Below, in pieces: positions 1 through 45,960 of a stretch of 64,000 nucleotides of DNA. The stretch's first letter is position 1; every line of letters begins with the position of its first letter. The DNA comes from Cyanobacteriota bacterium. GTDB lineage: Bacteria; Cyanobacteriota; Cyanobacteriia; Thermostichales; Thermostichaceae. The notes beneath the pieces were generated by a model. It made no database searches, was not told the origin of the DNA, and worked only from the letters and a program-made list of their open reading frames with translations. The stretch is from NCBI GenBank assembly GCA_033764955.1, contig JANRIL010000048.1, positions 73,267 through 137,266 on the forward strand, in the 5' to 3' direction. The translations under genes were made by a program, and so were the position numbers.

Positions 1-1038
1 GTAATTGGCACAGTAGTAGTGATAAGCCACTTGATAGTTTTTTATATTTAGGCTAAGAACCCGAATGGGTTTAGAGGGATGCATCATACCCCATAGTAAA
101 GCCGTCTGTTGCCAGGATATTTTTATCTTTGAAATAGAATGAACAACTAAATCATATTCTGGCTGTTGAGCAAGATATTCGGGTAAAAGGTTATGCAGAA
201 ACTTTAAGCCAACTTGCAACGATAGCAAAGTATGGGAGCAGGTTGCTATTTGGATTAACTCGTGCCAGTTAATAGATTCAGAATGAGCAAAAATCATGCA
301 AGCATCTGCAATCCATCGTAGAGGTGGAACATCATTCCATGCCAATCCATGTGAGATAACATGTAATAGCAAATCTATTTTATTGAGAGTTTGAATTTCC
401 CTCCCTTGGAAGTAAGCTGTTTTTGCTCTTTGCCAAGGATCATAACCGGGAAACAGAAACCAATGTAGATCAATCTCATAACCATATTGATTATGAAATG
501 CTATAGAACCAAACCGATATTGAATCATATCCTTAGGAGTTTCGTTTATTCGATTCATGATTTCCGGATATTTAATATGCCAGCCAGCATTTAACAAAAT
601 ATTGATAGCCAGAGTAATAGAATTAGATGGAATCAAGATATCAATATCCTGCATCGGACGAAAGCAAGGGCTAGAGTAAAAACCATCTGCCACTAGGGAA
701 AATCCCTTAAGAAACAGTATGGGTATACCTTGATGTTCCATTACGTCAATAACTTGTTGAGCAAAATAAAATAGGAGTTGATTACTAAAAGAAGCTTTAC
801 GGCGGATGCCTCTTAATTTCTGAGTTAAATCATCCCGAATGGAACAACTTTCAAGGTTATATGATAAAAGTGGAATTAATTTCAAACTACCTGCATCAAG
901 GTTGTCAATGCTTTCATATTGACGCCATGTTGTCCAGGCTGACCCTACTTGTTTGGGATCCCTTGATAGTGCTGCCGTCAAGAGAAGCTTCTGGCTAGAA
1001 TTGGGCAGGCTGTTACCTTGATAATTTCTAGTTTTCAT
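1..1038 (-). CDS. Nucleotidyltransferase family protein (NTP_transf_5-like), runs off the window edge
   Basis: Not in the ORF track. Hand translation from the ATG at 1038 gives MKTRNYQGNSLPNSSQKLLLTAAL...IPILFLKGFSL...FRPMQDIDILIP, with the LKG...R-M-DID motif. The frame is still open at position 1 and the start overlaps the GT2 stop. Confidence 0.8.
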   Translation of the reverse strand, partial: MKTRNYQGNSLPNSSQKLLLTAALSRDPKQVGSAWTTWRQYESIDNLDAGSLKLIPLLSYNLESCSIRDDLTQKLRGIRRKASFSNQLLFYFAQQVIDVMEHQGIPILFLKGFSLVADGFYSSPCFRPMQDIDILIPSNSITLAINILLNAGWHIKYPEIMNRINETPKDMIQYRFGSIAFHNQYGYEIDLHWFLFPGYDPWQRAKTAYFQGREIQTLNKIDLLLHVISHGLAWNDVPPLRWIADACMIFAHSESINWHELIQIATCSHTLLSLQVGLKFLHNLLPEYLAQQPEYDLVVHSISKIKISWQQTALLWGMMHPSKPIRVLSLNIKNYQVAYHYYCANY

Positions 1039-1726
1039 GCCAACCTCGCCGCCGATCTAAGATCTTTTTGAGGATTCCTGGAAAATATTTTGGGGCAGGA
1101 TCTCGTCGGCACAAGTTATTCTGATGCACCCGCCGCAACAGAACAGTTTGAGGCAACATCATTTCAACAAGTTTTTGGTCTTGAGCACGGGCATACCAAT
1201 CCATAAAAAATCCACTATCAAAATCACCTATCTTCTCAAAAGAACAACGGTTGATCAGCATTGCCCCTCGTAGATAGCCACAGACAGGTTGCTCGTTAAC
1301 TTTTAGTTTAGAACGCTCCTGTTCACTTAGATCTGGGCTAATAAATTGCTGTACATGACCAAAAACCATATCAACGTCTGGATTCTTCTGCATGGCATCT
1401 ATTTGTGCAGATAGCTTTCGAGGCAGCCAAATATCATCAGCATCGATAAAAGCTAAATAATTTCCCTGAGCCAGACGGATCCCTTGTTTAAGAGCTTCGG
1501 AGGCGCTATCTTTTGACTCCCAACATCCCTGCTTAACATAGTGAACAGGTTCTCCAAATGATTGAACAATAGAAGCAGATTGATCTGTAGAAAAATCATC
1601 AACAACAATAACCTCTAAAACAGGATAATCCTGATCAAGAATAGATTGTATAGCATCACGAATATAAAGCTCACCATTATACATGGGTATAACAACACTA
1701 ACTTGGAATAGGTTGGATAAGTGCAT
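1028..1726 (-). CDS. Glycosyltransferase family 2 (GT-A)
   Basis: VSVVIPMYN, VIVVDDFSTD and AFIDADDIW motifs. Confidence 0.9.
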   Translation of the reverse strand: MHLSNLFQVSVVIPMYNGELYIRDAIQSILDQDYPVLEVIVVDDFSTDQSASIVQSFGEPVHYVKQGCWESKDSASEALKQGIRLAQGNYLAFIDADDIWLPRKLSAQIDAMQKNPDVDMVFGHVQQFISPDLSEQERSKLKVNEQPVCGYLRGAMLINRCSFEKIGDFDSGFFMDWYARAQDQKLVEMMLPQTVLLRRVHQNNLCRRDPAPKYFPGILKKILDRRRGWHEN

Positions 1727-1764
1727 ATCTAAAGTTCACAACTAAGATGTGGTGAGAGGTTCAG

Positions 1765-2658
1765 TTAATTCAACCAGCTTGATAGATCAGTTTGTATCAA
1801 ATCCTGAAGATGAAGAATGTCATCACGAAAATATTCAGTAAGTTCTCCTCTCATATCCAAATCTAGGGGAGGAATGGTTTGTTTGGGTAAATAATGAGAT
1901 AGGCGGAGAGGCCATTGTACATAAGGTTCAAGTTCAGGGTTAAACATTGTTCTTCCATGAATGAATACAAAAGCTTTTCTGTATAAGAGGTTACCAAAAA
2001 GAATTTGACCTAAGAGAGGAAACTTGGGGATCCAGCCCGGATTTGAGTGAGGAAACTTTATGTCAAAAGATGAGATTGATAGAAAGGAAAAGATTTTTTC
2101 AAGAATTGCAACTTGTTTTTCTTGAACGTGTGTGGTTAAATCCTCAAATAAAATGGGCAAAACTTGGTCTTTATCAAAAAGATTGTAATATCGTTTGAGG
2201 CAACTGAAGTACATGCCTCGTGCTCTATAATTAAAAGGACCCGCCTCTGAGCTATTCTTCATCGCCAAATAGAAATCTAAACCAGACTCTCTACCTAAAC
2301 GAACTTCATGGTTAAAGTGAGCATAAGCCCGATCAACAGGATGACGAAGAGTAGCTAGAAGTTTCACCTGAGGGATGAGTTTATTAATGCGCTGGGGAGC
2401 GTTAGGGCAAGAAAGATATGCAGTTGTTGCTTCTCCACATAGCTGACCCTCTTTAGCCTCCTCAAAAAACTGACTATACTTTCTCACTTCTGGGGTAGAC
2501 ATTAGATTATGATTTTGCCAGCATGGTAAGTCTTTATTAAAAAATCGAAGCTCCTTAATTTGACTCATATAAATATCGGGATGTTGGGCAAGAAAGTGGT
2601 ATAGGGATGAACTGCCTGCTTTATGTGCACCAATAACTAACAGATTCGGCAGTTTCAT
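1765..2658 (-). CDS. PAPS-dependent sulfotransferase
   Basis: 5'-PSB loop GAHKAGSSSL, HPDI, and 3'-PB motif LRHPVDRAYAHF. Confidence 0.9.
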   Translation of the reverse strand: MKLPNLLVIGAHKAGSSSLYHFLAQHPDIYMSQIKELRFFNKDLPCWQNHNLMSTPEVRKYSQFFEEAKEGQLCGEATTAYLSCPNAPQRINKLIPQVKLLATLRHPVDRAYAHFNHEVRLGRESGLDFYLAMKNSSEAGPFNYRARGMYFSCLKRYYNLFDKDQVLPILFEDLTTHVQEKQVAILEKIFSFLSISSFDIKFPHSNPGWIPKFPLLGQILFGNLLYRKAFVFIHGRTMFNPELEPYVQWPLRLSHYLPKQTIPPLDLDMRGELTEYFRDDILHLQDLIQTDLSSWLN

Positions 2659-3800
2659 GGAAATCCTTCTCCGTCCAATTGCTGATAAATGCGGCTAAAA
2701 GTGCTAGCACAACGATCTAAACTGAATATTTCTATGGAGCGGCGACGGGCTGCTAGACCCATATTTTCTGCAATTTGTGGATGCTCAAGCAGATGAATAA
2801 CTGAGGATACTAACCCTTGCTGATCATCTCGCTCAATCAGTAAGCCCGTTTCATTGTCCACAACAATTTCTGGGATCCCACCATCTCGCGTGGCAACAAT
2901 TGGTCTTGCCATCTGAGCTGCTTGCAGAGCCACAAGACCAAAAGGTTCATTCCAACGAGAGGGCATTAAAATTATGCTAACAGAGTTTAGCAATGCGGCT
3001 ACCTTATCTTTTTCAACCCATCCTAAAAATTTAACTTGGTTGCTAATCTCTAAAGCCTCAACAAGATCAACTAAAGCAGGCATTTCTGGTCCACCGCCTG
3101 CAATGATCAGTTGACAATCTGGAATTTTTTTTAAAATTGAGGGCATAGCTTTTATTGCTAAATCAAATCCTTTATGTGGAACAATACGACCCAAACATAA
3201 TAGCTTAGGGGGACTAAAAGTAATTGTTTCGGGGATAGCATCAGGAATATAAAGACCATTATAGACAAGTTCAGCCTTATGAGAGATTTCGGGGAAAACC
3301 GCTAAAAAATCCTTCATGAGTGATTCTGATACGGCAGTTATTCGCTGAGCTTTACTTAAAACCTTTGTAATTATGGACTCCGAGTTGATTGTAATTTCAG
3401 GGTGAAAAATTGGATTAAGTGGTGAATGAAGAGAATAAAGAATAGGTATATCCTTGATTTTTGACATCCTTATTATTCTTTCAAAAAAGAATATACTTGG
3501 AGATTGAGTATTAACATGTAAGATATTAGGATTAAACTTAACGATGATCTCACAAATTATTGTAATTAGATCTTTCATTCTCTTGAGATCATGATCATCG
3601 AGGATTTTACGAAATGGGAAACGATGTACGGAAAGATTAGTATTGGTGCTGTCTGGAAGATCTGATTTACGAACTTTGTTGGAGGTAATAACGCAAAACT
3701 GATGCCCCTGTTGACAGAGGTAAGTGATCAGATCAGATGATAGGATCTCAACTCCTCCAATGTCTGGGAAAAATTGCTCGGACCAGTAAAGCACTTTCAT
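2655..3800 (-). CDS. Glycosyltransferase family 4 (GT-B)
   Basis: GGVE N-terminal motif, LGRIVPHKG, EPFGLVALQA, GGIPEIV. Confidence 0.9.
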   Translation of the reverse strand: MKVLYWSEQFFPDIGGVEILSSDLITYLCQQGHQFCVITSNKVRKSDLPDSTNTNLSVHRFPFRKILDDHDLKRMKDLITIICEIIVKFNPNILHVNTQSPSIFFFERIIRMSKIKDIPILYSLHSPLNPIFHPEITINSESIITKVLSKAQRITAVSESLMKDFLAVFPEISHKAELVYNGLYIPDAIPETITFSPPKLLCLGRIVPHKGFDLAIKAMPSILKKIPDCQLIIAGGGPEMPALVDLVEALEISNQVKFLGWVEKDKVAALLNSVSIILMPSRWNEPFGLVALQAAQMARPIVATRDGGIPEIVVDNETGLLIERDDQQGLVSSVIHLLEHPQIAENMGLAARRRSIEIFSLDRCASTFSRIYQQLDGEGFP

Positions 3801-3802
3801 AG

Positions 3803-4915
3803 CTAACTTAATAATAAATCAAAAACACACTGGTAAACTGCTTTTAGATCCTGCCCAACCTTAAACTGATAAACAGGCAACTGCTTAACTAGCTTACCTA
3901 TACTTGTGAAAGTCCAATCCCTTGATCCGGCTAAGGATGTTAGAATTCTTAAGGTGCTAGGGGCTAGGGTACGGATCCCTTGAGTCGGGCTAGCAAGTAT
4001 TAGCTGACTAGAATGACTATCCACGATTTGTGGCATCAGTATAGCTTTAATTGGTAATGAAGGCATAACTCTCTCAGGGGTATGTTGTGCAGTGAATAAC
4101 ACTGCTTTCTCGTGATCCCAAAAAGAGAAAGAAGGTAGCGGTTGATCCAATCTTTCAAAGAGTTTTTGACTGTTAAGAGAAAGTTTTCCTGTGTTGTATA
4201 AGCTAAAAACTCTTGGATCAGGTTCTAATGAAACCATACAAAAATCATCACTGATATAGTTCATACCCTGATGCCAGCAAGCTAAGGCAGTGGTTGACTT
4301 ACCAGCTCCACCATCTCCTACAATTAAAATACAGCTCTGTGAAGTGCCAACTGCCGCAGCGTGCAAAAAAAACAACTGTTTCCTTTCTAGCCACCAGAGC
4401 AGTATCCTAACAAGCGGTGCAGCTCTTTCATAACTAATATCATAATTCTCAAAATCATGGATGCTTTCCATCCAAAATATGCCCTGCTGAGAGCGGAAAT
4501 CTAAGATATTGATGACTTTAGGTTGAGTGCCAATTGTTACTTTAATGTGATCTTTACAATTGTTCGCAACTTGTCCCGCACTCCAATAGTCAGCATGAGA
4601 AATTCCCAGGCTAGGTATAGCCATATTTGTTGAGTGGGCATCCCAGATAAAAATGGTCAAGGCAGGCTGACTTGACTGGGATGAGCTTTCTTGATCCGAT
4701 GGTTTCCATGATAGATGGGCAAAAGCAGGTGTGAGGCAGTCAACCAATGATGAACCAATAAAGTTTAACTGAATATGGTAGCCAGCTATTAAGTAGTTTT
4801 TTACCGTTATGTCAGAAATGTCCCTGATTTTTTGAAATTGCTCAGTGACTGCCCAATATACTTTATGACTAGGGTCATATTCTGACATAATCAATTTTTG
4901 GTTACGATCGGCCAC
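3803..4915 (-). CDS. HPr kinase-related P-loop kinase
   Basis: LHAAAV...GDGGAGKSTT (Walker A)...YISDD signature of HprK-like kinases. Confidence 0.8.
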   Translation of the reverse strand: MADRNQKLIMSEYDPSHKVYWAVTEQFQKIRDISDITVKNYLIAGYHIQLNFIGSSLVDCLTPAFAHLSWKPSDQESSSQSSQPALTIFIWDAHSTNMAIPSLGISHADYWSAGQVANNCKDHIKVTIGTQPKVINILDFRSQQGIFWMESIHDFENYDISYERAAPLVRILLWWLERKQLFFLHAAAVGTSQSCILIVGDGGAGKSTTALACWHQGMNYISDDFCMVSLEPDPRVFSLYNTGKLSLNSQKLFERLDQPLPSFSFWDHEKAVLFTAQHTPERVMPSLPIKAILMPQIVDSHSSQLILASPTQGIRTLAPSTLRILTSLAGSRDWTFTSIGKLVKQLPVYQFKVGQDLKAVYQCVFDLLLS

Positions 4916-5328
4916 CCATCCTCGCCAACCTCATGAATGGGATCAAGGACAAGTAGATGCTGCATGTCAGCATAGCATTCTAACTTTGGAGCCTCGTAGA
5001 CGATTTTTGTAGTTTCAGTAGTGGTAAGATTAGTAGCTAGTTCATCTGAAAGGCTATCTTTCATGATAATAAGTTGATACTCGTGTAGATGATCCAAAAA
5101 TGTTTTTACATCAGAAGCAAACCCAAGTGGAGGATCCCTGAAAACCTGGGGTATTTTACTAATGAGTTCATCCAGTGATATTCCCTCTTCCAGAAATCTC
5201 CAAATTTGTGTTCCTGACTGATTCAGACTAAAATAAAGACCTGTTTCTAGATAAACAACAATAACTTCATCTCCGAAGTCTTCATAGCTGATTGCGGTGG
5301 AATTAATGAGCACAGTTTTGACATCCAT
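4891..5328 (-). CDS. PqqD/RRE-family protein with C-terminal YxxPxL...DPIH...GWP extension
   Basis: EVIVVYLETGLYFSLNQSGTQIWRFL...DVKTFLDHLHEYQLI is a typical PqqD/RRE pattern. Confidence 0.85.
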   Translation of the reverse strand: MDVKTVLINSTAISYEDFGDEVIVVYLETGLYFSLNQSGTQIWRFLEEGISLDELISKIPQVFRDPPLGFASDVKTFLDHLHEYQLIIMKDSLSDELATNLTTTETTKIVYEAPKLECYADMQHLLVLDPIHEVGEDGWPIVTKN

Positions 5329-5871
5329 ATTTCTTGAGCTTAGTAAAAACGGAGCATCATTAATCCTTTATTAGCTTCTTGCAGGCGCTAGCGTGGTGAG
5401 CAATTTCTGAATGACTTCGCTTGCTTATGGCAATGTATATTCAGTAAAACTCGGAAGAAGTCAATATCCTACAAACACTAATACCTCAGATGATCAATAG
5501 ATGCAACCGTCTTGAACCAATAAAATTTGAACAAGGTGAATATGCAGAAGCACATCGTGCCAATAGGTGAGTTTCTTTTAATCTCGATGACACCTCTGTT
5601 CAGAATCTTGAGAGGTTCCAATAGTTCTGAAGCTCCTGGTAGACTTACGTTTAAGCTTCTTGAACAGGTAGTTGAGGATGATCAAGGGTTAGTTGGTTGG
5701 CTAGGAGAAGAATGTCGAGGGCAACCTACCCTAGTAGCTCCCCCTATAATCCCCTTCCCTGGCTAGTTTTCTGGCATTCGGTCATCAAACTAGCTGACAT
5801 TCTTACCAATCTGCTCTAATCTAGCGGACAGCCCACGTTTCACAAAACGCTAGGAACAAAGGATCGGGATT

Positions 5872-7023
5872 ATGGCAGAAGGGGAGTACAAGCCGGGGTT
5901 AGAGGGGGTGCCTGCTACTAGCTCGAACATCAGTTTTGTGGATGGGCAAGTCGGATTGTTGGAATATCGCGGGATCCCGATTACCGAACTCACCACCCAT
6001 AGTACCTTTTTAGAAACGGCGCATCTGCTGATCTATGATCACCTACCCACTCAGACCGATCTGGAAGAATTTGAACAGGCTATTGTTGGGCATCGTCGCG
6101 TCAAGTACCGAATCATCGACATGATCAAATCCTTTCCTGAATCTGGTCACCCGATGGACGCCTTGCAAACCTGTGTGGCTGCCTTGGGTTTATTTTATCC
6201 GATTCAAGAATATTCCCATGATTATGTATTTGGCACCGTAACTCGCCTGCTAGCCAAAGTTCCCACTTTAGTGGCTGCCTTTCATCAAATGCGGCAAGGC
6301 AACGATCCGATTCCTCCCCGCGATGATCTGGATCATTCCGCTAATTTTCTCTATATGCTTTCGGGGCAAGTTCCGGATCCGGCACTGTCTAAAATTTTTG
6401 ATACCTGCTTGATCATGCACGCCGAACATACGGTGAATGCCTCCACCTTTGCTTTATTGGTGACGGCTTCCACATTAGCCAATCCTTATAGCGCGATTGC
6501 TTCTGCCATTGGCACCCTCTCTGGACAATTGCATGGGGGTGCCAATGAACAGGTGATGGTGATGCTGCGACAAATTGGTTCGGTAGAAAATGTTCGCCCC
6601 TTTATTGAGGAGAAACTAGCTAAAAAACAAAAGATTATGGGGATTGGCCATCGGGTCTACAAAGTTAAAGATCCGCGAGCGATCATTCTACAAAAGTTTG
6701 CGGAAGCGATGTTCACCGGCAAGGAACATAGCAAATTTTATGACATTGCTTTAGAGGTGGAAAAGGTCTGTGAGGAATTGGTGGGAGCCAAAGGCATTTA
6801 TCCCAACGTCGATTTTTATTCCGGTTTGGTCTATGCCAAGTTAGGGATCCCGGAGGATTTGTTTACCCCTGTATTTGCTATTTCGCGGGTGGCTGGATGG
6901 TTAGCCCATTGGCGGGAGCAGCTCTCCGATAACCGTCTTTTCCGCCCTACCCAGGTTTATACCGGATTGCGGGATCAATCTTATGTTCCCTTGGCAGAGC
7001 GGGTTTATCCGACTTCGGCATGA
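5872..7023 (+). CDS. gltA: Citrate synthase
   Basis: GLEGV, HAEHTVNASTF, LHGGANE, GIGHRVYK and YPNVDFYSG motifs. Confidence 0.97.
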   Translation: MAEGEYKPGLEGVPATSSNISFVDGQVGLLEYRGIPITELTTHSTFLETAHLLIYDHLPTQTDLEEFEQAIVGHRRVKYRIIDMIKSFPESGHPMDALQTCVAALGLFYPIQEYSHDYVFGTVTRLLAKVPTLVAAFHQMRQGNDPIPPRDDLDHSANFLYMLSGQVPDPALSKIFDTCLIMHAEHTVNASTFALLVTASTLANPYSAIASAIGTLSGQLHGGANEQVMVMLRQIGSVENVRPFIEEKLAKKQKIMGIGHRVYKVKDPRAIILQKFAEAMFTGKEHSKFYDIALEVEKVCEELVGAKGIYPNVDFYSGLVYAKLGIPEDLFTPVFAISRVAGWLAHWREQLSDNRLFRPTQVYTGLRDQSYVPLAERVYPTSA

Positions 7024-9282: not shown

Positions 9283-9968
9283 TCAATCGGATCCCAAATG
9301 ACCCAGCGCGGCGATGACTTGCTTGGGCAAATCCAATGGGGATCCCGAATTATCAATCACCCGATCCGCTTGGGGAATTTTTTGGCTGAGGGGCCACTGA
9401 CTGAGCAGACGGTTCTGAAGATCGGCTGGCGAGAGATCAGGATCCCGTTTTTGCAAGCGCTCTCGCTGTTGGGCTGCCGTACAGATAACCAACCAAATTT
9501 CGTTGACCAAATCAGTCATATTGGCTTCAAAAAGTAGTGGGATCATCAAGCAAACGGTTGGGGCGCTAGCATAATGGTTCAAAAAAAAAACAACTCCTGT
9601 CGGACAACGGGATGAATTTGCTCCTCCAACCAACGGCGCTGTTCAGGATTAGCAAAAATGGTTTGCCCCAAAGCGCGGCGATTTAGGGATCCCTGCTCAT
9701 CAAGAATCTCAGTGCCAAAATGCTGGATCACCCGTTGCTCAATCAGGGATCCGCGGGTGAGTGCCTGTCGCGCCAATTGATCCGCATCCGCCAAGGGGAT
9801 CCCTTGCTGCCGAAGCAACTGGGCGACGGTTGATTTGCCCGTAGCAATGCCTCCGGTTAACCCAATGATCCGTTGGGGAGCGGGTTGTTTCGACAACCAT
9901 TCAGAGGATTTCAAGGGGGCAGTTAAGGAGGTGCTATCCACCATCCCTTGCCAATCGACGGATTTCAT
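9283..9968 (-). CDS. coaE: Dephospho-CoA kinase, split by a frameshift at the A10 run 9581-9590
   Basis: N-half IGLTGGIATGKST...DAD...LEEQIHP and C-half IPLLFE...QWPLSQK..ADRVIDNSG lie in different frames. Confidence 0.85.
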
Positions 9969-10621
9969 TTGCTTTCTGAACCCGATAAAGCTGTCGTTAT
10001 TCCCAGACCAATATACACACCACCTGCAAAATAGCGCTGACCCTTCAAAAAACGCTGATTTTTCTGGAACCAATGGCCAACCGATCCAGCCAATAGGGCA
10101 TAGATTCCATCGCTGATCGTTGCCAACAATACAAACAAGCCCCCCAAAAATAACATCTGCAAGGTAACATTCCCTTTGGAAATATCGATAAATTGTGGGA
10201 GAAAAGCAAAAAAGAAGAAAGCGGTTTTTGGATTCAATAGATTGACAATGACACCCTGCCAGAAGATTTGCAGCAAGCTGGCTCGCCCAGCCATTTTCTC
10301 CCGCTGTGCGTCTTCACGGGACAACAGTTTATGAATGCCCAGGAAAATCAGATAAGCTGCGCCCAGGTACTTGACAATATTGAAGGCTAATGCCGATGAC
10401 AATAGCAGGGCTGAAACACCGCAGGCTGCCGCCGCCACATGAAACAGAGTACCCAACTCCAAACCCAGAACCGAAGCAAAGCCAGCCATTCTTCCTTGAT
10501 TGACGCTACGGGCAATAATATAGAGAACAGCCGGCCCAGGAGTTAAAAGAAGGACTAAAGAAGCGGCGATAAACAAGTATATTTGGGGGAGTTCCGGCAT
10601 TGAGTCTCTCCGTTCCAGCAT
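9965..10621 (-). CDS. LysE/RhtB family amino-acid exporter
   Basis: TPGPAV, GAAYLIFLG and NLLNPKTAFFF motifs. Confidence 0.92.
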   Translation of the reverse strand: MLERRDSMPELPQIYLFIAASLVLLLTPGPAVLYIIARSVNQGRMAGFASVLGLELGTLFHVAAAACGVSALLLSSALAFNIVKYLGAAYLIFLGIHKLLSREDAQREKMAGRASLLQIFWQGVIVNLLNPKTAFFFFAFLPQFIDISKGNVTLQMLFLGGLFVLLATISDGIYALLAGSVGHWFQKNQRFLKGQRYFAGGVYIGLGITTALSGSESK

Positions 10622-10716: not shown

Positions 10717-11664
10717 ATGAATGCCTCCTCCTCCAGCCTGCCCGTCGGACTCTTCATCAGCCAATTTTTGCGAGAACGGGAACGGGATTTAGCCAAAGCC
10801 AGCCGACGCACCTACCAGATGGCCTTGACTCAGTTTGCCGCCACCTGTGAACTGCCACTGGATCAAATTCAACCTCTGCATATTCAGGCTTTTTTGAATA
10901 GTTTGAAAGGACGACCCTTCAAAAACAAAGCGGGATCCCTGATTTATCCTCCGGCTTCCCCTGCCACCTACAACCTGAAGCGGCTGGCTCTCCAGCAATT
11001 TTTTGAGTGGGCGCAGGCTCGCGGATATTGCCAGCCTCCCTTGCCCACCCAGGTTATTCGCGCCGCCCGCCTCCCCCCCCGCTTGCCCAAAGATCTGGAT
11101 CGGCTCTTGCTGCAACGAGTGCTAACCCGCGCCCAAAGCCATTCACTGCGTTATACCGCCTTGTTGCGGGTCATGTTGGAATGCGGTCTTCGCGCTCAGG
11201 AATTATTGGATTTAACAGTGCAGGACTTTCAGCAATCTCCCGAAGGATCAACTTTAGATATCCGTTCGGGTAAGGGCAGCAAACCTCGCTCGGTGGCCGT
11301 GGGGGATCCCTTAGCCGATCTGCTCCGCGACTATCTTCAGCAGGAACGCGGACTCTCTGCCCCTACGGATCCTTTGTTTGTCTCCCAATCTCGCTGCGCC
11401 GACTATCAGGGCAAACCCCTCACCTATGACGGGCTGCGTCACATTGTTTTGAAGCTCACCGAAGCAGAACCTGGGCAGCAAACCCCCCACCAATTCCGCC
11501 ATAGTTTTGCCACCCTGCTCTTGGATCATGGGGTTGCCCCTGAGCATATTCAACATCTGCTGGGTCATACCACCGCTGCTATGACCATGCGCTATACGCA
11601 ACGCGCCAACCTGCGGGCGGCGATTGCCCGTTCCCGTGAAGTCTTGGATCAAGGACTGATCTAG
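10717..11664 (+). CDS. Tyrosine recombinase, XerC/D-like
   Basis: Catalytic R (CGLRAQE), K (GKGSK), HQFRH, LGH and TMRY all present. Confidence 0.9.
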   Translation: MNASSSSLPVGLFISQFLRERERDLAKASRRTYQMALTQFAATCELPLDQIQPLHIQAFLNSLKGRPFKNKAGSLIYPPASPATYNLKRLALQQFFEWAQARGYCQPPLPTQVIRAARLPPRLPKDLDRLLLQRVLTRAQSHSLRYTALLRVMLECGLRAQELLDLTVQDFQQSPEGSTLDIRSGKGSKPRSVAVGDPLADLLRDYLQQERGLSAPTDPLFVSQSRCADYQGKPLTYDGLRHIVLKLTEAEPGQQTPHQFRHSFATLLLDHGVAPEHIQHLLGHTTAAMTMRYTQRANLRAAIARSREVLDQGLI

Positions 11665-14128: not shown

Positions 14129-14773
14129 ATGGTTCAGGTTTTTCAGCAGGCCTATAGCTATGCGGCTAGCCATTCCGATAGTTTATGGTTAGCCCTCCTT
14201 CAGCATCTACAACTGGTGGCTGTGCCTTTAGGGATTGGCTTAGGACTTGGCCTGCCTTTGGGGTTATTGAGTGCCCGCTCGCAAGTCGCCTCTGCCCTTT
14301 TGATGAATGGGTTTAATACCCTACGGGTGATTCCCAGCTTAGCGATTTTATTTTTGGCGATCCCTTACTTTGGCCTCACTTTTACCTCCTCCATCCTAGC
14401 CTTGACCCTGCTGGTCATACCCCCTATTTTAATTAGCACCGATGTTGCCTTTCGCACAATTGAACCCGCGATTCGGGAGGCCGCTTTTGGCTTAGGAATG
14501 ACTTCTCAACAGGTGCTTAGGCAAGTTGAGATTCCTTTAGCGCTACCCATTGTGATTGCAGGGATTAAAACCGCCACGATTGAAGTGATTGCTAGTGCTA
14601 CGCTGGCTGCTTTTATTGGGGGAGGAGGACTGGGAACTTTTATTACCTTGGGGTTTGCCCTTTATGACAATGCCATTCTATTGGTGGGGGCAATTCCTGT
14701 AGCAATCTTAGCCATGACTGCGGAAATAGGATTATCTGCTCTGCAAAAAGCGGTGCAACCTCCGACAGCTTGA
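14129..14773 (+). CDS. Osmoprotectant-type ABC transporter permease (OpuBB/ProW-like)
   Basis: IPSLAIL, EAAFGLGMT (EAA loop), LAAFIGGGGLG. Confidence 0.88.
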   Translation: MVQVFQQAYSYAASHSDSLWLALLQHLQLVAVPLGIGLGLGLPLGLLSARSQVASALLMNGFNTLRVIPSLAILFLAIPYFGLTFTSSILALTLLVIPPILISTDVAFRTIEPAIREAAFGLGMTSQQVLRQVEIPLALPIVIAGIKTATIEVIASATLAAFIGGGGLGTFITLGFALYDNAILLVGAIPVAILAMTAEIGLSALQKAVQPPTA

Positions 14774-15051
14774 TATATCCCTATCTTGGCTTGAATTGGG
14801 GTTGGAACCCGTGGCTGCTCCCTCGGTTGTTACCAAGGCAGTTGGTTCTCCCATCACAAACAAGATCAAATGATGGTAGTGTCGTAGGGCTAGGGGTTCT
14901 CAAGAGGATCCCTATACTTAGCGTTTGAGTGGCTTGCTAAACTGTCTTGCTAGCCGTGTGGATCCCATTGGGGAGAATACTACTCTCACAAGGGATTTTT
15001 GCAAGATGTTGATGGCCAAACCCCCCTGAATATGAGAGGTTTCAGCAGATC

Positions 15052-16095
15052 ATGAGCACGAAAACCCCCACCCAAAACCCATCCGCTCAGTTGTTGAGCA
15101 TTGACTTGGGACGTACCTCCACCAAGGCTTGCATTAGCCGTCAGCCCGAAGATGTTGTATTGATTCCTGCCAATGTTGCCCACCTCTCTGTGGAAGAAGT
15201 TCGGCGGGGGGGATTTGCTTTTCGTCCCTCGGATCCGCTACTCGATATTTGGTTGGAATATCAAGGCAAAGGATATGCCATTGGTCAATTAGCCGCCGAT
15301 TTTGGTGCCAATTTGGGGGTAGGACAATCCAAAGTTGCCGATGCTCTGATCAAAGTTTTTGCCTGTATTGGCAATTTTGATCTCAAGCAAGATCTGCTGG
15401 TGGTGTTAGGGATCCCCTATCTTTCACAAGAACAGTTTGACAAAGAAAAAGAAGAAATTACTAGCCTATTACAAGGCCCCCATGTGATGGCTTTTCGTGG
15501 TCAAGATCGAGCCGTAGCTATCCAACAGGTGTGGGTGATGCCAGAGGGGTATGGCAGCCTGATTTGGTGTGAAGGACAGAAGAAAGACTATTTCAGCAAT
15601 TTATCGGTGGCCGTGATTGATATTGGACATCAAACCACAGATTTCTTAATGGTGGATCGCTTTCGTTTTGCCAGGGGAATTTCGATGAGTGAATCCTTTG
15701 GTATGAATGAATTTTATGTGCAGGTGGCCGAGAAAATTCCGGGGGCGGATAGTCAGTCCCTTTCCTTAATTGAAGGGGTGAATCGTCCTCAAGGCAAGCG
15801 CTTTTATCGTCCACGGGGAGCAACCAAACCGACTCCTTTGGATGATATCCTGCCGGAGCTGCGCAAAAAATTTGCCCGCGAACTGTCTCAACGACTGTTG
15901 GCTTGGCTGCCGGAACGAGCCACCGATGTGATTGTGACGGGGGGAGGAGGTGAATTCTTTTGGGACGATCTGCGGCCTTTGTTGGAGGAAGCTGCCCTCA
16001 CCCCGCACTTAGCGGAACACTCCCGCACCGCTAACGCCCTGGGGCAATATATCTATGGAGAAGTGCAATTATCATCGGTGGGAAATACCCCCTAA
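15052..16095 (+). CDS. parM: ParM/StbA-family actin-like ATPase (chromosomal, CorM-like)
   Basis: Actin-fold motifs: phosphate-1 SIDLGRTSTK, connect VMPEGYGS, phosphate-2 IDIGHQTTD, adenosine VTGGGG, ANALG. Confidence 0.88.
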   Translation: MSTKTPTQNPSAQLLSIDLGRTSTKACISRQPEDVVLIPANVAHLSVEEVRRGGFAFRPSDPLLDIWLEYQGKGYAIGQLAADFGANLGVGQSKVADALIKVFACIGNFDLKQDLLVVLGIPYLSQEQFDKEKEEITSLLQGPHVMAFRGQDRAVAIQQVWVMPEGYGSLIWCEGQKKDYFSNLSVAVIDIGHQTTDFLMVDRFRFARGISMSESFGMNEFYVQVAEKIPGADSQSLSLIEGVNRPQGKRFYRPRGATKPTPLDDILPELRKKFARELSQRLLAWLPERATDVIVTGGGGEFFWDDLRPLLEEAALTPHLAEHSRTANALGQYIYGEVQLSSVGNTP

Positions 16096-16149
16096 TGGAG
16101 GGAGCATGGAGCTATTCGAGCGCAGCCTATTGAGCCAGGGATAGAAGTT

Positions 16150-16617
16150 ATGGCTACCACCAAAAAAATTACGGTGTCGTTTAGCTCTGCTGATGATCTG
16201 GAGTTATTAGAACGGATTGAGTTGCAGGTGGGATCCCTATCCTCTGGCAATTTCAGTGAGTTATGCAAACAGGCTTTACGGGCTTTTTTGGCCTCTACTC
16301 CTCCAGCCACCTTGCCTGGGGAGGACTCCGCCGTTGGGAGAGCTGAGAGTGACGCGGTTGTGAATGAAGTTGTTTTGGCGGATCCGGCCATCGCCATCAT
16401 GCAACAGCAACTCATAGCTCTCGACGAACGCCTGAGAAGCTTGGAGTCTGGGCAACAACGCCTACCCAAATTAGAAAAAGAACTGAGTAAGCTTGCCCAG
16501 GCTGTGCAAGCCCTGCGAGAACCCTCGGTAGAGGCTCCCCAGCCCACTCCAGCTAAGCCTGACTACAGTCGGGATCCATTGTTATCCCGGTTAGGCCCCC
16601 TTTTGGAAAGTTTTTAG
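16150..16617 (+). CDS. ParR-like partner (N-terminal RHH-like region, coiled coil, C-terminal amphipathic helix)
   Basis: Directly downstream of parM; KITVSF...FSELCKQALRAFL, heptad LDERLRSLE, tail DPLLSRLGPLLESF. Confidence 0.7.
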   Translation: MATTKKITVSFSSADDLELLERIELQVGSLSSGNFSELCKQALRAFLASTPPATLPGEDSAVGRAESDAVVNEVVLADPAIAIMQQQLIALDERLRSLESGQQRLPKLEKELSKLAQAVQALREPSVEAPQPTPAKPDYSRDPLLSRLGPLLESF

Positions 16618-40731: not shown

Positions 40732-43700
40732 CTATTCCGTCTGGCTGAGCTGTGTCAGGGCAACCAAATCTCGATACCGCACTTTCTTGACCATTGTCTT
40801 TAGAGAAATGGTCAGATGTTCATGCTCCCCAGGGATCCCTGCTAGCAGTTGGTTAATTTTTTTGCTGTTGAGCTTGGTGGCGGCTTCATGCAATTCCTGA
40901 ATCCAATCGCGGGGCATCACAGCTAGATCTTGAGAGGTCAGTTCACGGGCTGTAGAGGCAACAGCGCTAGGGGAAGGAGGCGCACTTTCCGTAACAAATT
41001 GTACGCCAAGATGCTGGCTTAACTTGTCAAAAATCATCGACTCTCGAAAGGGTTTTCCAACAAAATCATCACAGCCATTGGCTAAAATGGTGGCTCGATC
41101 TTGCTCAAAGGCACTCGCCGTCAGGGCAATAATTTTGGTGGAACGGGATCCCAAGTGAGCTTTGATGTAACGGGTAGCCTCATTCCCATCCATGACGGGC
41201 ATCTGAATGTCCATCCAGATCAAATGCGGATCCCAAGCTTGCCAGATATCGATGGCCTCTTGCCCATTGCTGGCGGTTTTAATCTGGTTCAATCCAACTA
41301 GTCTCAACAGTTCGGCCAAAACCTGCTGATTTTCCGGTCTATCATCCACGATTAAGAGGCGATAGGAGGGCTGCCCAGCCACTAACCCGATCACCTTGGG
41401 TTGGGATCCCGTATCTTGGATTTGAGCAGGTTCCGCTCGTCTGGCTTGAATAGGAAAGGAAAAGGTGGTGCCTTGTCCCTTTTGGCTGGTGACGTGAATA
41501 TCACCGCCCATCAATTTGACAAATTCTCGGCTAATAGCCAAGCCTAAACCTGTGCCTTCACTGACTTTTTTGCTGGTATCGGTTTGCACAAAAGCCTGGA
41601 AAAGCATCGACAATTCTTCAGGTGTCATGCCCATGCCCGTATCCACCACCGCAAATTGAATGGTACAGGGATCCCCCTTAGCCAGTTGCCGAACCTGAAG
41701 GGTAACGCCACCCGCTTTCGTAAACTTGATGGCATTACCGATCAAGTTAATCAAAACCTGTCGGAGTTTATTTTCATCAGTGATCAGTGCTGTTGGCAAT
41801 TGGGGATCGAGATCAAAGGTAAGATAGATATTTTTGGCTTTTGCCCGCACATTCAACATTTCCTGTAGAGTTTTGAGCATTGTTAACAAATCAAAAGCTG
41901 ACTCTTGCAGAACAATTTTGCCCGCTTCAATTTTGGCCATATCAAGAACACTGTTAATCAGGTTGAGCAGATGTTCTCCACTACGGTTAATAGTAGCTAC
42001 GGTATCTTTTTGTTTGTCAGTTAGATGGGGATCCCGTGAGAGCAATTGACTAAACCCAAGAATAGCGTTGAGAGGAGTTCGCAGTTCATGGCTCATGTTG
42101 GCTAAGAATGTACTCTTTGCTTTGTTGGCAGCTTCCGCCACTTCGCGTGCCTGCTGTTGAATCTGCTCAGCTTTTTTGAGTTCCGTGATGTCCGTTCCAA
42201 TGGTTAAAACACAGGCTTGATCCTCCCCAGGGATTTGCATGGGGCGCTTGATCCACTGCAAGAACCGTCCCTCTCCTTGCTGGTTAACCTGATTTTCTTC
42301 TGCAGATCTCAGTTCTTGTCCAGTTGATAAAACTTGCTGATTTTCCAGAATTACTTGCTGCCAAACTTCCGCCAGCAGATGCTCGGATTCAAGAGAATTG
42401 ATCAAGTGGTTACGATTAAGTCCATAAAATTGAGCATAGGCTAGATTAGCTAAGATAGTTCGATTTTGTCTGTCTCTAACTACAATGAGATCCGGTGATG
42501 TATCCAGAAGGGTCACCAAAAATTCTCGCTGCTGTCGAATTGATTCTTCTATTTTCTTGCGAGCAGTAATATCTTCTAGAATACCCAGACTAAGCTGAGG
42601 GGATCCCTGTTGATCGTTAATCAGTGCAACCGTCAATCGTGTCCAAATAGTTTGTTTATCTTTGCGAACACAGCGTTTTTCCAGTTGATAATAGTTTCTT
42701 TTTCCAGCGATCAAATCGTTCCACAAAACTTCTTCCGCCAAAACATCATCAGGATGAGTATAGTGATGAAAATGAATTGGCATTAACTCATCGACGGAAT
42801 AGCCTAGGAGCTGGGCTAAAAAGGGGTTGACACGCAGAGTTTTTCCATCCAGGGTATCAAGAGTAATACCCATGGGGGCATTTTCAAAGATGCCACGAAA
42901 CTGGGCTTCACTCTCCGCTAAAGCCGCTTCAGCCTGCTTGCGGCGGGTGATATCCATCCCAATCATCAACACACAGGGTTCACCCGTGGCGGGTAAGATG
43001 ATGCGCCGCTTTACCCATTGCACCCACTGTTCCTTTCCCGCCGCATCCCAATGGCATTCTTCAGGGGTTTGAACATCTTCACCCGATACAATAACTTGGC
43101 GAGTTTCCAGCAACCATTTCCGCCAATCTTCAGCACTAAACGCTTCAGAGGTATCTCCTAAAGAATCTTGCACTGTCTTGCCAAAGAAATTAGCTGCTGT
43201 TTGATTGATTAAAACAGTATGGTTATCCCAATTTTTTACAACAATTAGATCCGGCGAGGTATCAATCAATCGATTTAGAAATGTTTGCTGATCGTGAATG
43301 GATTTTTCAGTTATTTTGCGCTCGGTAACATCCGTATGGGATCCCACCAGTCGTTTTGGGTTACCCAACTCATCTCGATGGGTAATTTTGGCACGAGACA
43401 ATATCCAGCGATACGATCCATCACGATGACGCATTCTCACTTCAAAATTAAGGGCAGAACTTTCCCCCCTTAAATGAGCAAAAACTTTACTAAGTGCACC
43501 ATCAATATCTTCAGGGTGTACTAGATTTTCCCAGGAAGAAAAGAGATTAGGAATTTCTTCATCACTATACCCCAGCATTGATTTCCACTGTGGAGAAAAA
43601 TACACATCATTAGTCTCTAAGTCCCAATCCCAAATGCCTTCGTTAATGCTGGCCGTAACCAGTTGAAAACGGGCTTCACTGGCAATAAGAGCTTGTTCCG

Positions 43701-45960
43701 CAACCTTAGAAGCTGTGATGTCCAACGAGACACCTGAGAGTTGAACAGCTTTACCAAATTCATTGCGTTTATAGTCTCCTATGCTAATCAACCAATGCAC
43801 ACTTTGATCTGGCCAAACCACCCGATACTCCACACAATACTGGGATCCATTTTGCAGTGCTTGATCTTGAGCCTGACTGATTTTCTGATGATCCTCAGGG
43901 TGCACACATTGCAAAAAACTTTCAAAATTTACTTCCTTGGTAGGTGGAATTCCCAGGAGAGCCGCCATTTCTGGTGACCATGATTCTGTTCCTGTTTCTA
44001 TATCCCAGTCCCAAACCCCCATATGGGCAGCTTGTAGAGCCAAACTGAGTTTGACCTGCTGATCAATCAACGCCATTTCTGCCTGCCGACGTGCCTGACC
44101 AGAACTCATGATCTCACCAGCCGTTTTGGCAAAATCAATATCATTGTCCATCCATTCCTGGGGAGATTTTAGTCGTTCCAGAGCTAAAATACCTCTTAAT
44201 TCCCCTTGATAATGTAAGGGGATATAGAGAATCGATTGAATGCCGAGATTATGCCATTCACTATAATTAAATTGGGAAGACTGAGATGAGCTGGGTTCTG
44301 TATTATCGACACGAACAATTTGCTGTTGCTGCATTTGTCGAAGAATACGTCCGAAACTCACGAGCGATTGATTTTGAGATTGTTCCAATGAAGAAGGGAT
44401 CCCTGGCTCCGTCCATTCATAGCTTTCTCGAATTAAACCCTCTTTATTGACATAGACAAATAAGCGAGAGCGATCCGCTTGAATGAACTCAGCAATCTGC
44501 TGCAAACTCCCCTGAATAGCTAATTCTAGGTTCTGTTCTACAAATAAACGAGCGATCCGGCTCAACCGTTTGCTGGCTTCAGTTTGGCGGGTTAAAGCCC
44601 TAGTACGCCGCTGTACTCGACTCTCTAATTCGGCATTATTGGCTTCCAGTTTTACAAAAGACTGTCGAAGCTGGAGAGCCATCTCATTAAACGACATTGC
44701 CAGCAGATCAAACTCTTCAATTCGCTGAGAAGGTAAGGGTTGCTGCCACTGAGCTGCTGCCATCTTGTGAGTCATTTGACTGATTAAACGGATGGGACGG
44801 GTAATCCAATGAGAGGTGGTCATTCCTAATGCGGTAGCCAACAAGAAAGCAAAGAGACAAAGCGCAAGCGTAATATAGCTATTGCGTTGAATATGTTCAG
44901 TAAAATCGGCCTGGGGGATTAAAATCACCACTAGCCAATCAATCCCTTTGTTGTCTTGAAAGGGGCTGATATGCAAGTAATATCGCTCTTGATCAATCCA
45001 TAGTTGATGGTGTTGAGATTGACGGATTTTTTCGAGAGTGGGGTAGTTTTTTTTCAGAAATTGAGCAGCTTCACGGATCCTTAAGTTCCCACTCGATTCG
45101 GCTGTCAACCGTTCTAGGGCAAGCCCCAATTTCAAAACCACTGGATCTGGAGTAGAAATCGCCACTAATAAACCCGAAGGCTCCATGATAAATAGGCTGC
45201 CCGATCGCCCAATCGAAAGGCGGCTGAGAAATTTTTGAATACCCGATAAATGTAGATCACTGCCTGTTACGGCCAATAGTTTTCCTTGGTTGTCATATAC
45301 AGGTCGAGCTGCCGTAATAGTCAACTCCTGCTCCAGGAAACTGGGATAAATTTCACTCCAAATAGGGCTTTTTGCTTGTAGTGCTGATTGATACCAGGGG
45401 CGTTGACGAGGATCAAAAGGTTGTTCTGAAGTGAGGACAATATTTTGCCGTTTTCCCTGTGGATCCACACTCCAACGGTTGAGTCGATTATTACCATTAT
45501 CGGATCCCGCACTGGAAATAACAGGCTTTCCTTCTAAATAAGTCGCTCCCCGATGGTGACCGTTAGGTTGCCCAATAAAAATAGAATTAACCTGATTAAA
45601 ATACTGAAGCTGTGTCAGTAGATAGCGATCGGACAATGGAATATTTTGCAGATCAAGGGATCCCAATTGCAGTTGTTGAGCATTCAGGTCATTGACTAAG
45701 AGTGGATCTGCCACATAATCTTGTAACTGATCAAGGGTATATTCGGCAATTTCTTCTTGCAGTTGTTCAGCTAAATCATTGATGGCTAACTGTCCATTGC
45801 GAAAGGAAATATAGCCGACGACCCCTACCACTAGAGTAATTTGCGCCATGAAAGGAAGTACCACCACCCACGATAACGGGATCCGCCCTTTGACCATTCC
45901 AGCGATTGGCGGGGCACCGGGTAACTTTTTGGGTAAATTTTTAGGTGCAGCGCTAGCCAT
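40732..45960 (-). CDS. Hybrid sensor histidine kinase (Cache-HAMP-GAF-multiple PAS-HisKA-HATPase-REC)
   Basis: DPRQRPWY (Cache), repeated HPED/HPDD PAS-PAC units, FLANMSHELRTP, NLIGNAIKFT, GTGLGL, WMDIQMP. Confidence 0.95.
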   Translation of the reverse strand: MASAAPKNLPKKLPGAPPIAGMVKGRIPLSWVVVLPFMAQITLVVGVVGYISFRNGQLAINDLAEQLQEEIAEYTLDQLQDYVADPLLVNDLNAQQLQLGSLDLQNIPLSDRYLLTQLQYFNQVNSIFIGQPNGHHRGATYLEGKPVISSAGSDNGNNRLNRWSVDPQGKRQNIVLTSEQPFDPRQRPWYQSALQAKSPIWSEIYPSFLEQELTITAARPVYDNQGKLLAVTGSDLHLSGIQKFLSRLSIGRSGSLFIMEPSGLLVAISTPDPVVLKLGLALERLTAESSGNLRIREAAQFLKKNYPTLEKIRQSQHHQLWIDQERYYLHISPFQDNKGIDWLVVILIPQADFTEHIQRNSYITLALCLFAFLLATALGMTTSHWITRPIRLISQMTHKMAAAQWQQPLPSQRIEEFDLLAMSFNEMALQLRQSFVKLEANNAELESRVQRRTRALTRQTEASKRLSRIARLFVEQNLELAIQGSLQQIAEFIQADRSRLFVYVNKEGLIRESYEWTEPGIPSSLEQSQNQSLVSFGRILRQMQQQQIVRVDNTEPSSSQSSQFNYSEWHNLGIQSILYIPLHYQGELRGILALERLKSPQEWMDNDIDFAKTAGEIMSSGQARRQAEMALIDQQVKLSLALQAAHMGVWDWDIETGTESWSPEMAALLGIPPTKEVNFESFLQCVHPEDHQKISQAQDQALQNGSQYCVEYRVVWPDQSVHWLISIGDYKRNEFGKAVQLSGVSLDITASKVAEQALIASEARFQLVTASINEGIWDWDLETNDVYFSPQWKSMLGYSDEEIPNLFSSWENLVHPEDIDGALSKVFAHLRGESSALNFEVRMRHRDGSYRWILSRAKITHRDELGNPKRLVGSHTDVTERKITEKSIHDQQTFLNRLIDTSPDLIVVKNWDNHTVLINQTAANFFGKTVQDSLGDTSEAFSAEDWRKWLLETRQVIVSGEDVQTPEECHWDAAGKEQWVQWVKRRIILPATGEPCVLMIGMDITRRKQAEAALAESEAQFRGIFENAPMGITLDTLDGKTLRVNPFLAQLLGYSVDELMPIHFHHYTHPDDVLAEEVLWNDLIAGKRNYYQLEKRCVRKDKQTIWTRLTVALINDQQGSPQLSLGILEDITARKKIEESIRQQREFLVTLLDTSPDLIVVRDRQNRTILANLAYAQFYGLNRNHLINSLESEHLLAEVWQQVILENQQVLSTGQELRSAEENQVNQQGEGRFLQWIKRPMQIPGEDQACVLTIGTDITELKKAEQIQQQAREVAEAANKAKSTFLANMSHELRTPLNAILGFSQLLSRDPHLTDKQKDTVATINRSGEHLLNLINSVLDMAKIEAGKIVLQESAFDLLTMLKTLQEMLNVRAKAKNIYLTFDLDPQLPTALITDENKLRQVLINLIGNAIKFTKAGGVTLQVRQLAKGDPCTIQFAVVDTGMGMTPEELSMLFQAFVQTDTSKKVSEGTGLGLAISREFVKLMGGDIHVTSQKGQGTTFSFPIQARRAEPAQIQDTGSQPKVIGLVAGQPSYRLLIVDDRPENQQVLAELLRLVGLNQIKTASNGQEAIDIWQAWDPHLIWMDIQMPVMDGNEATRYIKAHLGSRSTKIIALTASAFEQDRATILANGCDDFVGKPFRESMIFDKLSQHLGVQFVTESAPPSPSAVASTARELTSQDLAVMPRDWIQELHEAATKLNSKKINQLLAGIPGEHEHLTISLKTMVKKVRYRDLVALTQLSQTE

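Follow-up and report, generated by a model that had tools for sequence, protein, structure and literature searches.

A chromosomal corM-corR pair in a relative of Thermostichus and the possible early origin of an actin-like cytoskeleton in cyanobacteria

When did cyanobacteria turn a plasmid-type segregation cassette into a chromosomal cytoskeleton that gives shape to the cell, and which of its parts came first? This question is raised by two adjacent genes in a stretch of 64,000 nucleotides (hereafter, the window) of contig JANRIL010000048.1, positions 73,267 to 137,266 of the forward strand, in assembly GCA_033764955.1 from a cyanobacterium of the Thermostichus family. The first gene, corM, encodes an actin-like ATPase, and the second one, corR, its small partner. 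The corresponding system was described in 2025 in two papers. FcmB/FcmC of Nostoc punctiforme (PMC12645912) is the same system as CorM/CorR of Anabaena sp. PCC 7120 (Springstein et al., 10.1101/2025.06.27.661541). Both papers describe a chromosomally captured ParMR, whose membrane-bound actin-like filaments serve cell shape and not DNA distribution, and both restrict it to Nostocales and Oscillatoriales, or to filamentous strains (PMC12645912, 10.1101/2025.06.27.661541). The published origin is the 'ancestor of Nostocales and Oscillatoriales' (10.1101/2025.06.27.661541), and among the 126 genomes surveyed by Nguyen et al. (mSphere 2025), FcmB was confined to filamentous strains and absent from unicellular ones (PMC12645912).

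We read the window pair as an orthologue of CorM/CorR that has long been resident on a chromosome of the Thermostichus family, and give this reading as a whole a probability of about 0.75. The pair is an intact, ordinary member of the system published in 2025, with no new mechanism; the novelty lies in its distribution and in the features that it lacks. According to the mechanism proposed, which is carried over from the experiments in Anabaena and Nostoc, CorM would polymerise with ATP into dynamic filaments, CorR would dimerise via its N-terminal part, the C-terminal peptide of CorR would dock in a hydrophobic pocket of CorM, and the complex would shape the cell from its cortex without segregating DNA. 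By analogy, we lean slightly towards such a cortical cell-shape role in the window organism as well.

Identity and architecture of the pair

The window pair is almost certainly orthologous to CorM/CorR (= FcmB/FcmC) as judged by sequence, because the corM product reaches 598.4 bits against the NCBIfam equivalog NF052678, FcmB ('filament morphology actin-like protein'; cut-off 300), aligns through its residues 5-342 with residues 35-377 of the chain in PDB entry 9rmi ('CorM'; E 2.4e-147), its sole significant match in the PDB, and is encoded by the single FcmB-type gene that a whole-genome profile search found. The product also matches the Pfam families ALP_N and MreB-like_C. The first-pass annotation, made from the sequence of the window, had recognised an actin-fold ATPase followed by a small partner with ribbon-helix-helix (RHH)-like and coiled-coil features, and had proposed that the pair is a CorMR-like descendant of ParMR on the chromosome; these matches, together with the AlphaFold2 model described below, bear out both proposals.

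Other actin-like families fit less well. The match to the ParM model NF010498 is weak (56 bits, where the model cut-off is 417), and window CorM is only 23-27% identical to most cyanobacterial plasmid ParM proteins. MreB is likewise an actin-fold protein tied to cell shape, and mutants of either are rounded in Anabaena and Nostoc, but it constitutes a separate family, and the window genome encodes its own MreB (494 bits) on another contig. CorM retains the nucleotide-binding motifs of the actin fold, of which phosphate-1, phosphate-2 and the adenosine-binding loop are listed in Table 1; in an alignment of 11 CorM sequences (alignment A1), residues S16, D18-S23 and K25 of the first one are invariant. 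With the second one, DIGHQTTD, as search pattern, a scan of species genomes retrieved 315 relatives.

The partner gene follows corM after 54 nt in the same orientation, an arrangement that is the same in related loci. The two genes also share a reading frame, with one TAA and 18 sense codons between them (16093-16152), and read-through at this place would fuse CorM with CorR; the shared frame is probably due to chance.

The AlphaFold2 model of CorR, built from 39 aligned sequences, has a mean pLDDT of 78.2. Residues 1-13 are unstructured in it, and helices span 14-29, 35-49, 79-123 (the long one) and 143-153 (a short one). A linker of low confidence precedes the long helix, and another linker follows it. 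Helices 14-29 and 35-49 correspond to the RHH pattern, and the FSxLCKQAL helix is conserved in alignment A2 (39 CorR sequences), where L19, F35, C39, K40, D142, P143 and F155 are invariant. Window CorR thus shares, at the level of sequence, the three modules of the published CorR: the RHH-like FSxLCKQAL domain, the coiled-coil helix, and a linker ending in DPLLxRLxxLLExF. No sequence relative of CorR was found among solved structures.

With the Anabaena system, the window pair shares the chromosomal corM-corR order, the absence of parC repeats, a CorM core that aligns end to end, and a CorR in which an RHH-like module and a long helix are followed by a disordered linker and by a conserved, putatively CorM-binding C-terminal peptide. 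With FcmB/FcmC of N. punctiforme it shares orientation and chromosomal location, and window CorM passes the FcmB model built on that system. The likeness extends to R1-type ParMRC, in which an actin-fold ATPase also precedes a small RHH adaptor that binds the filament protein through its C-terminal helix; the window pair differs from it in being chromosomal and in having no parC iterons.

Table 1. Features of the corM-corR locus, in window coordinates; A1 and A2 are the alignments described in the text
Feature	Position	Strand	Description	Evidence
Intergenic region upstream of corM	14774..15051	.	278 nt; no parC-like iteron array	
corM / fcmB	15052..16095	+	347 aa; ParM-derived actin-like, filament-forming ATPase by orthology	NCBIfam, Pfam, PDB matches
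Phosphate-1 motif SIDLGRTSTK	15097..15126	+	CorM residues 16-25	Aligned to solved CorM
Host palindrome GGGATCCC inside corM	15409..15416	.		Palindrome count
Phosphate-2 motif DIGHQTTD	15619..15642	+	CorM residues 190-197; invariant in A1	Aligned to solved CorM
GGGG adenosine-binding loop	15940..15951	+	CorM residues 297-300; invariant in A1	Aligned to solved CorM
corR / fcmC	16150..16617	+	Adaptor protein, 155 aa	Directly downstream of corM
RHH-like N-terminal module	16150..16296	+	MATTKK basic N-terminus, strand ITVSF, helices 14-29/35-49, FSELCKQAL; without MFxW-type start	AlphaFold2, A2, N-terminus comparison
Host palindrome GGGATCCC inside corR	16230..16237	.		Palindrome count
Long helix 79-123 (H5a of the published CorR scheme)	16384..16518	+	Likely coiled coil	AlphaFold2 model
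C-terminal peptide DPLLSRLGPLLESF (H5b)	16573..16614	+	Predicted CorM-docking helix	Motif conservation, complex model, Anabaena homologue

The two ends of CorR

Among the alternatives, the one that survives best, even if we regard it as unlikely, is that the pair is still a DNA-segregating ParMR, or an intermediate, whose RHH module would bind DNA via a basic N-terminal arm, with the centromere located elsewhere. CorR starts with MATTKKITVSF, a stretch as short and basic as the arms of RHH proteins that bind DNA; it contains no aromatic residue, and its hydrophobic moment is 0.33. The N-terminal CorR tails of its family relatives are rich in Ser, Thr, Lys and Arg. No in-frame ATG, GTG or TTG lies upstream of this start. 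The MFxW-type start (hydrophobic moment 0.38-0.54) was found in 11 of 58 distinct sequences, from Nostocales and an allied clade with MF(Q/P)WSKK, and recurs in representatives of three further families; the 8 distinct sequences of the host family all lack this helix, and the family sequences branch outside all others. Against DNA segregation, Anabaena CorR bound neither its own promoter nor R1 parC (10.1101/2025.06.27.661541), deletion mutants of Anabaena and Nostoc had no DNA-distribution defect (10.1101/2025.06.27.661541, PMC12645912), and the helix-2 motif of the RHH module, FSxLCKQAL, is identical to that of the membrane-binding proteins. No iterons were found upstream of corM either, in agreement with the first-pass annotation, which had seen no iterated centromere there: positions 14600-15150 contain only two-copy repeats of 8-18 nt, such as TGGCTTGCTA / TGTCTTGCTA at 14930-14952, and Tandem Repeats Finder returned nothing within 14774-15051. 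A promoter scan of the region upstream of corM gave no sigma-70-like site.

Less probable again is the proposal of the first-pass annotation that the partner ends in an amphipathic helix which targets the membrane, as in MinD or FtsA, and would tether the filaments there. CorR does end in an amphipathic helix, DPLLSRLGPLLESF, with a hydrophobic moment of 0.55-0.59 and a mean hydrophobicity of 0.66-0.69, and window CorR shows no other obvious membrane anchor. However, this tail is acidic, with a net charge of -1 here and of 0 to -3, never positive, in 58 of 58 distinct homologues, unlike the amphipathic anchors of MinD and FtsA, which are basic. It also has Gly-Pro in the middle of the helix, and the HeliQuest-type discriminant of its last 11 residues is 0.56, where HeliQuest counts values of at least 0.68 as possibly lipid-binding. 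The tail is, furthermore, equally conserved in Nostocales CorR proteins that carry a separate N-terminal anchor. An open reading frame ending in a motif of the type DP[LV]LxRLxxLL[ED]xF follows corM in 83 of 91 loci, and 4 of the 8 loci without it are interrupted by a contig end.

The place where the tail would act instead is suggested by a model of the complex of CorM with CorR residues 120-155, obtained in three runs and scored by ipSAE against controls. The complex scored 0.69 (runs 0.69, 0.68 and 0.70), against 0.03 for the best control; the mark used for such models is reached by 116 of 157 solved complexes and by 2 of 215 mismatched pairs. At least 80% of the contacts are common to the runs, and the pLDDT of the partner is 55-62. 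In this model, residues 139-155 of CorR contact CorM at 129, 133, 161-164, 171-175, 182, 204-206 and 334-342, and the CorM contact residues F129, K133, V162, P164, E174, F204-F206, Y335 and G336 are invariant in A1. In Anabaena, CorR without residues 150-162 keeps its lipid and vesicle binding and loses CorM recruitment, whereas removal of residues 1-10 abolishes lipid binding, which makes the membrane helix N-terminal (10.1101/2025.06.27.661541). Because it is homologous to Anabaena 150-162, acidic, and modelled in the CorM pocket, the window CorR tail is very probably a CorM-binding peptide, and the membrane-targeting role first attributed to it is not supported.

The N-terminus of CorR is one of three places where the window form departs from the described one. 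The MF(Q/P)WSKK start of Nostocales fits, by its sequence, the published N-terminal amphipathic helix, and the window protein starts with MATTKK where the Nostocales loci have the MFxWSKK type. The second place is the N-terminus of CorM: only 13 residues precede the LLSIDLG core in the window, versus 43 in chain 9rmi and 45-56 in representatives of four other families belonging to MFxW-type lineages. The extended, disordered N-terminus of about 40 residues that has been reported as restricted to the chromosomal clade is thus not found in window CorM. Finally, the MinC open reading frame of the genome is short, with 249 aa, versus more than 300 aa in the 'long MinC' class of the preprint (10.1101/2025.06.27.661541), and the host itself falls outside Nostocales and Oscillatoriales. 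All three described innovations, i.e. the CorR N-terminal helix, the long CorM N-terminus and the long MinC, would therefore be absent or reduced here, as their sequences indicate. Since CorR anchor, CorM N-terminus and MinC all differ, any membrane tethering or Min control must operate in another way in this organism. A form without these three Nostocales innovations could stand in for the ancestral state in the passage from a DNA-segregation adaptor to a membrane adaptor.

Host lineage and chromosomal setting

The host is another genus (g1) of the family holding Synechococcus JA-3-3Ab/JA-2-3B'a (Thermostichus), defined here as the corresponding GTDB family, whose genera are given as codes and were compared within a set of 40 relatives from inside and outside the family; no 16S rRNA gene was found in the genome, which is 89% complete. 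Genus g2 comprises 12 species with genomes of 2.2-3.7 Mb, and is read as Thermostichus on account of the palindrome GGGATCCC, a variant reported in no cyanobacteria other than Synechococcus OS-B' and OS-A: the counts in two closed g2 genomes (4099 and 3401 sites) equal the 1345 and 1160 per Mb tabulated for these two strains (PMC4390886, PMC5861425). Thermostichales are described as the order that branched off first among thylakoid-bearing cyanobacteria, and their larger-genome mesophilic members are known only as metagenome-assembled genomes (PMC10156173). The early-branching lineage assumed in the first-pass annotation is thereby upheld, as the host shares its GTDB family with g2.

FcmB/FcmC has been described as confined to filamentous strains (PMC12645912), whereas the only cultured members of the host family that we found are described as unicellular (PMC11750575); these belong to g2, a genus without corM. 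Two markers typical of filamentous cyanobacteria are of no help in this respect, as neither follows CorM in other families. HetR (PF03574) was found in none of 22 other family genomes, none of 7 sister-family genomes and not in the window genome, and its presence in 5 of 11 other genomes of the class does not coincide with CorM, so that it says nothing on morphology. HpsE (NF038302) scored above its cut-off in none of the 22 other family genomes, not in the window genome, and in 3 of 41 overall, which is uninformative on morphology as well.

The density of GGGATCCC divides the family: it reaches 1.2-1.5 per kb in g1, g2, g6 and g7, and 0.04-0.13 per kb in g3, g4, g5 and g8, in a comparison of five genomes against another five that include the window genome. 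Even in the second group the sites are 4-14 times as many as in the control, and this HIP variant therefore seems to have expanded within the host family.

Within the window, the pair lies among housekeeping genes, such as those for citrate synthase, CobK, SigF, transaldolase, tRNA nucleotidyltransferase, AroQ, HemB, enolase, cyanase and several ABC transporters, and none of the 56 other window proteins scanned matched plasmid replication, partition or transfer families. The palindrome GGGATCCC occurs 82 times in the window, where 2.06 occurrences are expected from shuffles, and once inside each gene of the pair; the canonical HIP1 octamer occurs twice. This housekeeping context, the host sites and the lack of plasmid genes had all been pointed out in the first-pass annotation, and all three stand. 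The 137-kb contig, which is not a closed replicon, carries 1.33 sites per kb, in a genome where most of the 48 contigs have about 1-2 per kb. Enolase, encoded on the same contig, is 81-86% identical to that of g2 and groups within the family clade (SH-aLRT 95), which supports the placement of the host. This single-gene tree does not order the genera inside the family, nor does it show whether the CorM-less g2 nests among carriers. Because of the housekeeping neighbours, the palindrome in both genes, the genome-like density of the contig and the family enolase, it is highly likely that corMR has been resident on the chromosome for a long time.

These observations also bear on the opposite possibility, namely that the pair was imported recently by horizontal transfer, with a filamentous cyanobacterium or a plasmid as donor, or that the contig was binned wrongly. 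The locus would then be uninformative on early cyanobacteria. A tyrosine recombinase of the phage-integrase family, with XerC/XerD scores far under the cut-offs, is encoded 3.4 kb upstream of corM (10717-11664, + strand). However, host palindromes occur at normal density between the recombinase and corR, and hence the recombinase marks no recent island.

Several points weigh against the reading of the pair as a long-resident CorM/CorR orthologue. CorR matches NCBIfam NF052682, FcmC, with 56.4 bits, below the cut-off of 90, which distinguishes it from the partner in N. punctiforme, although the match spans residues 8-155 of CorR and positions 7-159 of the 159 of the profile. Its RHH fold is unconfirmed: the best row of a Foldseek search of the CorR model against the PDB was MetJ, with a non-significant E of 3.8, and VIA-align wide, where the long helix dominated the result, gave only generic coiled coils (Z at most 4.8). 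The good score of the complex model may be due to nothing more than likeness, since the complex of ParM with the ParR peptide, and CorM itself, had already been solved. The published membrane anchor of CorR appears, from the sequence, to have no visible counterpart here, which weakens the inference of a cortical location. Last, the window flanks share no synteny with the other corMR loci examined; when nine flanking window proteins were compared with 98 other corM loci, many of which have flanks of only 1.5-4 kb, only one unrelated ABC ATPase matched.

Distribution and history of corMR

Within the host family, FcmB was found above the cut-off in all sampled genomes of g3 (2/2), g4 (2/2), g5 (1/1), g6 (3/3) and g8 (1/1), and in none of g2 (0/12) or g7 (0/1), nor in the sister family (0/7). 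Carriers thus make up 5 of the 7 other genera sampled, or 6 of 8 counting g1. The two genera without FcmB have small genomes and a high palindrome density, the latter shared by g1 and g6. In a class-wide sample, FcmB was present in 98 of 401 genomes and 55 of 169 genera.

The most careful CorM tree is a maximum-likelihood one with 93 rows (86 of them different), from which a truncated copy and five distant paralogues were excluded. It separates the 12 host-family rows from the 81 other CorM rows by one bipartition, with 98 for ultrafast bootstrap (UFBoot) and 93 for SH-aLRT; the family side comprises the window and 7 other genomes, with 8 distinct sequences. The split was kept, with SH-aLRT 94, in a tree of 112 rows made by a quick method after the addition of 19 representatives of other families. 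When distant ParM-like paralogues are used as outgroup, window CorM groups with all chromosomal CorM against them (support 99), as expected of a chromosomal CorM distinct from plasmid ParM. In the same outgroup tree, the other CorM form a clade (support 89) and the family rows are basal; this root among the family sequences was not relied on, given the warning of long-branch attraction, and the root of the CorM tree is insecure.

Nostocales plasmids also carry corM-like genes (in Nostoc, Trichormus and Dolichospermum), with 53-56% identity to window CorM and no corR annotated beside them. They nest inside the chromosomal Nostocales clade (support 99), and look, by sequence, like secondary mobilisations of the chromosomal corM and not like its ancestors. 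The recent import introduced above could appeal to these plasmid copies, to the recombinase, to the insecure root and to the identity of window CorM to distant orders, which at 69-71% is as high as that within the family (61-74%), but the palindrome at genome density in contig and genes, the enolase, the family's own side of the CorM trees and the nested position of the plasmid copies make it the least credible of the alternatives, with very little probability left to it.

The pattern of the CorM sequences would fit vertical descent since about the split of Thermostichales, with later losses, or else one ancient transfer from one stem lineage to another, and argues against a recent import. The family distribution of corMR and the separation of the family CorM in the trees together suggest that the system arose before, or close to, the split of Thermostichales, and hence earlier than published. 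The view of the first-pass annotation that the case bears on the timing of the repurposing is therefore sustained, since the CorM trees split the host family from all others. A complete, long-resident corMR in 6 of the 8 genera sampled in the Thermostichus family would push the origin back by a large step, and the CorM gene tree would mirror the deepest split among thylakoid-bearing cyanobacteria. The accessible text of the preprint makes no mention of Thermostichales or Gloeomargaritales, even though its supplementary trees may hold relevant rows (10.1101/2025.06.27.661541), and our literature search found no paper, as judged by title, that deals with ParM in Thermostichales.

A second family may extend this picture to unicellular organisms. 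In family f21, FcmB was above the cut-off in 10 of 10 sampled genomes (1.8-3.2 Mb, three of them closed), and in four loci examined from its genus g30, corM precedes a corR that starts with MTERLGKRVSRSITFYP and has the conserved tail TDPLIAELGAFLLDDF. This family appears to be Gloeomargaritaceae, and cultured Gloeomargarita are unicellular rods (10.1101/2022.11.03.515036). If g30 is Gloeomargarita, CorMR is not confined to filamentous forms, which contradicts the statement that it is 'absent from unicellular strains'. If CorMR works in unicells, its link with multicellularity is broken; if, on the contrary, the Thermostichales bearing corMR are filamentous, there would be filamentous forms in the earliest thylakoid-bearing order.

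Put together, these elements allow a more far-reaching scenario, which we advance tentatively and hold to be rather less probable than its negation. The chromosomal capture of ParMR would have taken place at or before the split of Thermostichales from all other thylakoid-bearing cyanobacteria, in a plain form without the CorR N-terminal membrane helix, the long CorM tail and the long MinC, which would be later additions of the Nostocales-allied clade, and the system would have been lost in the small-genome thermophiles g2 and g7. CorMR, if f21 is Gloeomargaritaceae, would not be tied to multicellularity, and the window organism may be a unicellular rod using CorMR.

Some individual corM loci deserve a separate mention. 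One locus in family f19, where corM occurs in only 1 of 39 genomes, has corM followed by an open reading frame for a ParA-type ATPase (KGGCGKST Walker box) in place of corR. In the closed genome of Cyanobacteria bacterium LVE1205-1, a 452-aa open reading frame without the C-terminal motif comes after corM, and no corR was recognised in the locus. A full corM-corR pair on a 24.7-kb contig assigned to a gammaproteobacterial Thiomargarita sp. metagenome-assembled genome is most likely a mis-binned cyanobacterial contig.

As for the rest of the window, positions 1-6000 have a GC content of 0.39-0.41, versus about 0.52 elsewhere, encode glycosyltransferases and contain only 3 GGGATCCC sites over these 6 kb; this points to a polysaccharide island of more recent acquisition. 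The dephospho-CoA kinase gene coaE (9283-10070, - strand) is split into two overlapping open reading frames, 9579-10070 covering profile positions 1-94 and 9283-9630 covering 106-186, and this split is a frameshift or an assembly error. Finally, a 1741-aa multi-PAS hybrid histidine kinase is encoded on the - strand at 40732-45957, in a stretch with a GC content of 0.44-0.45.

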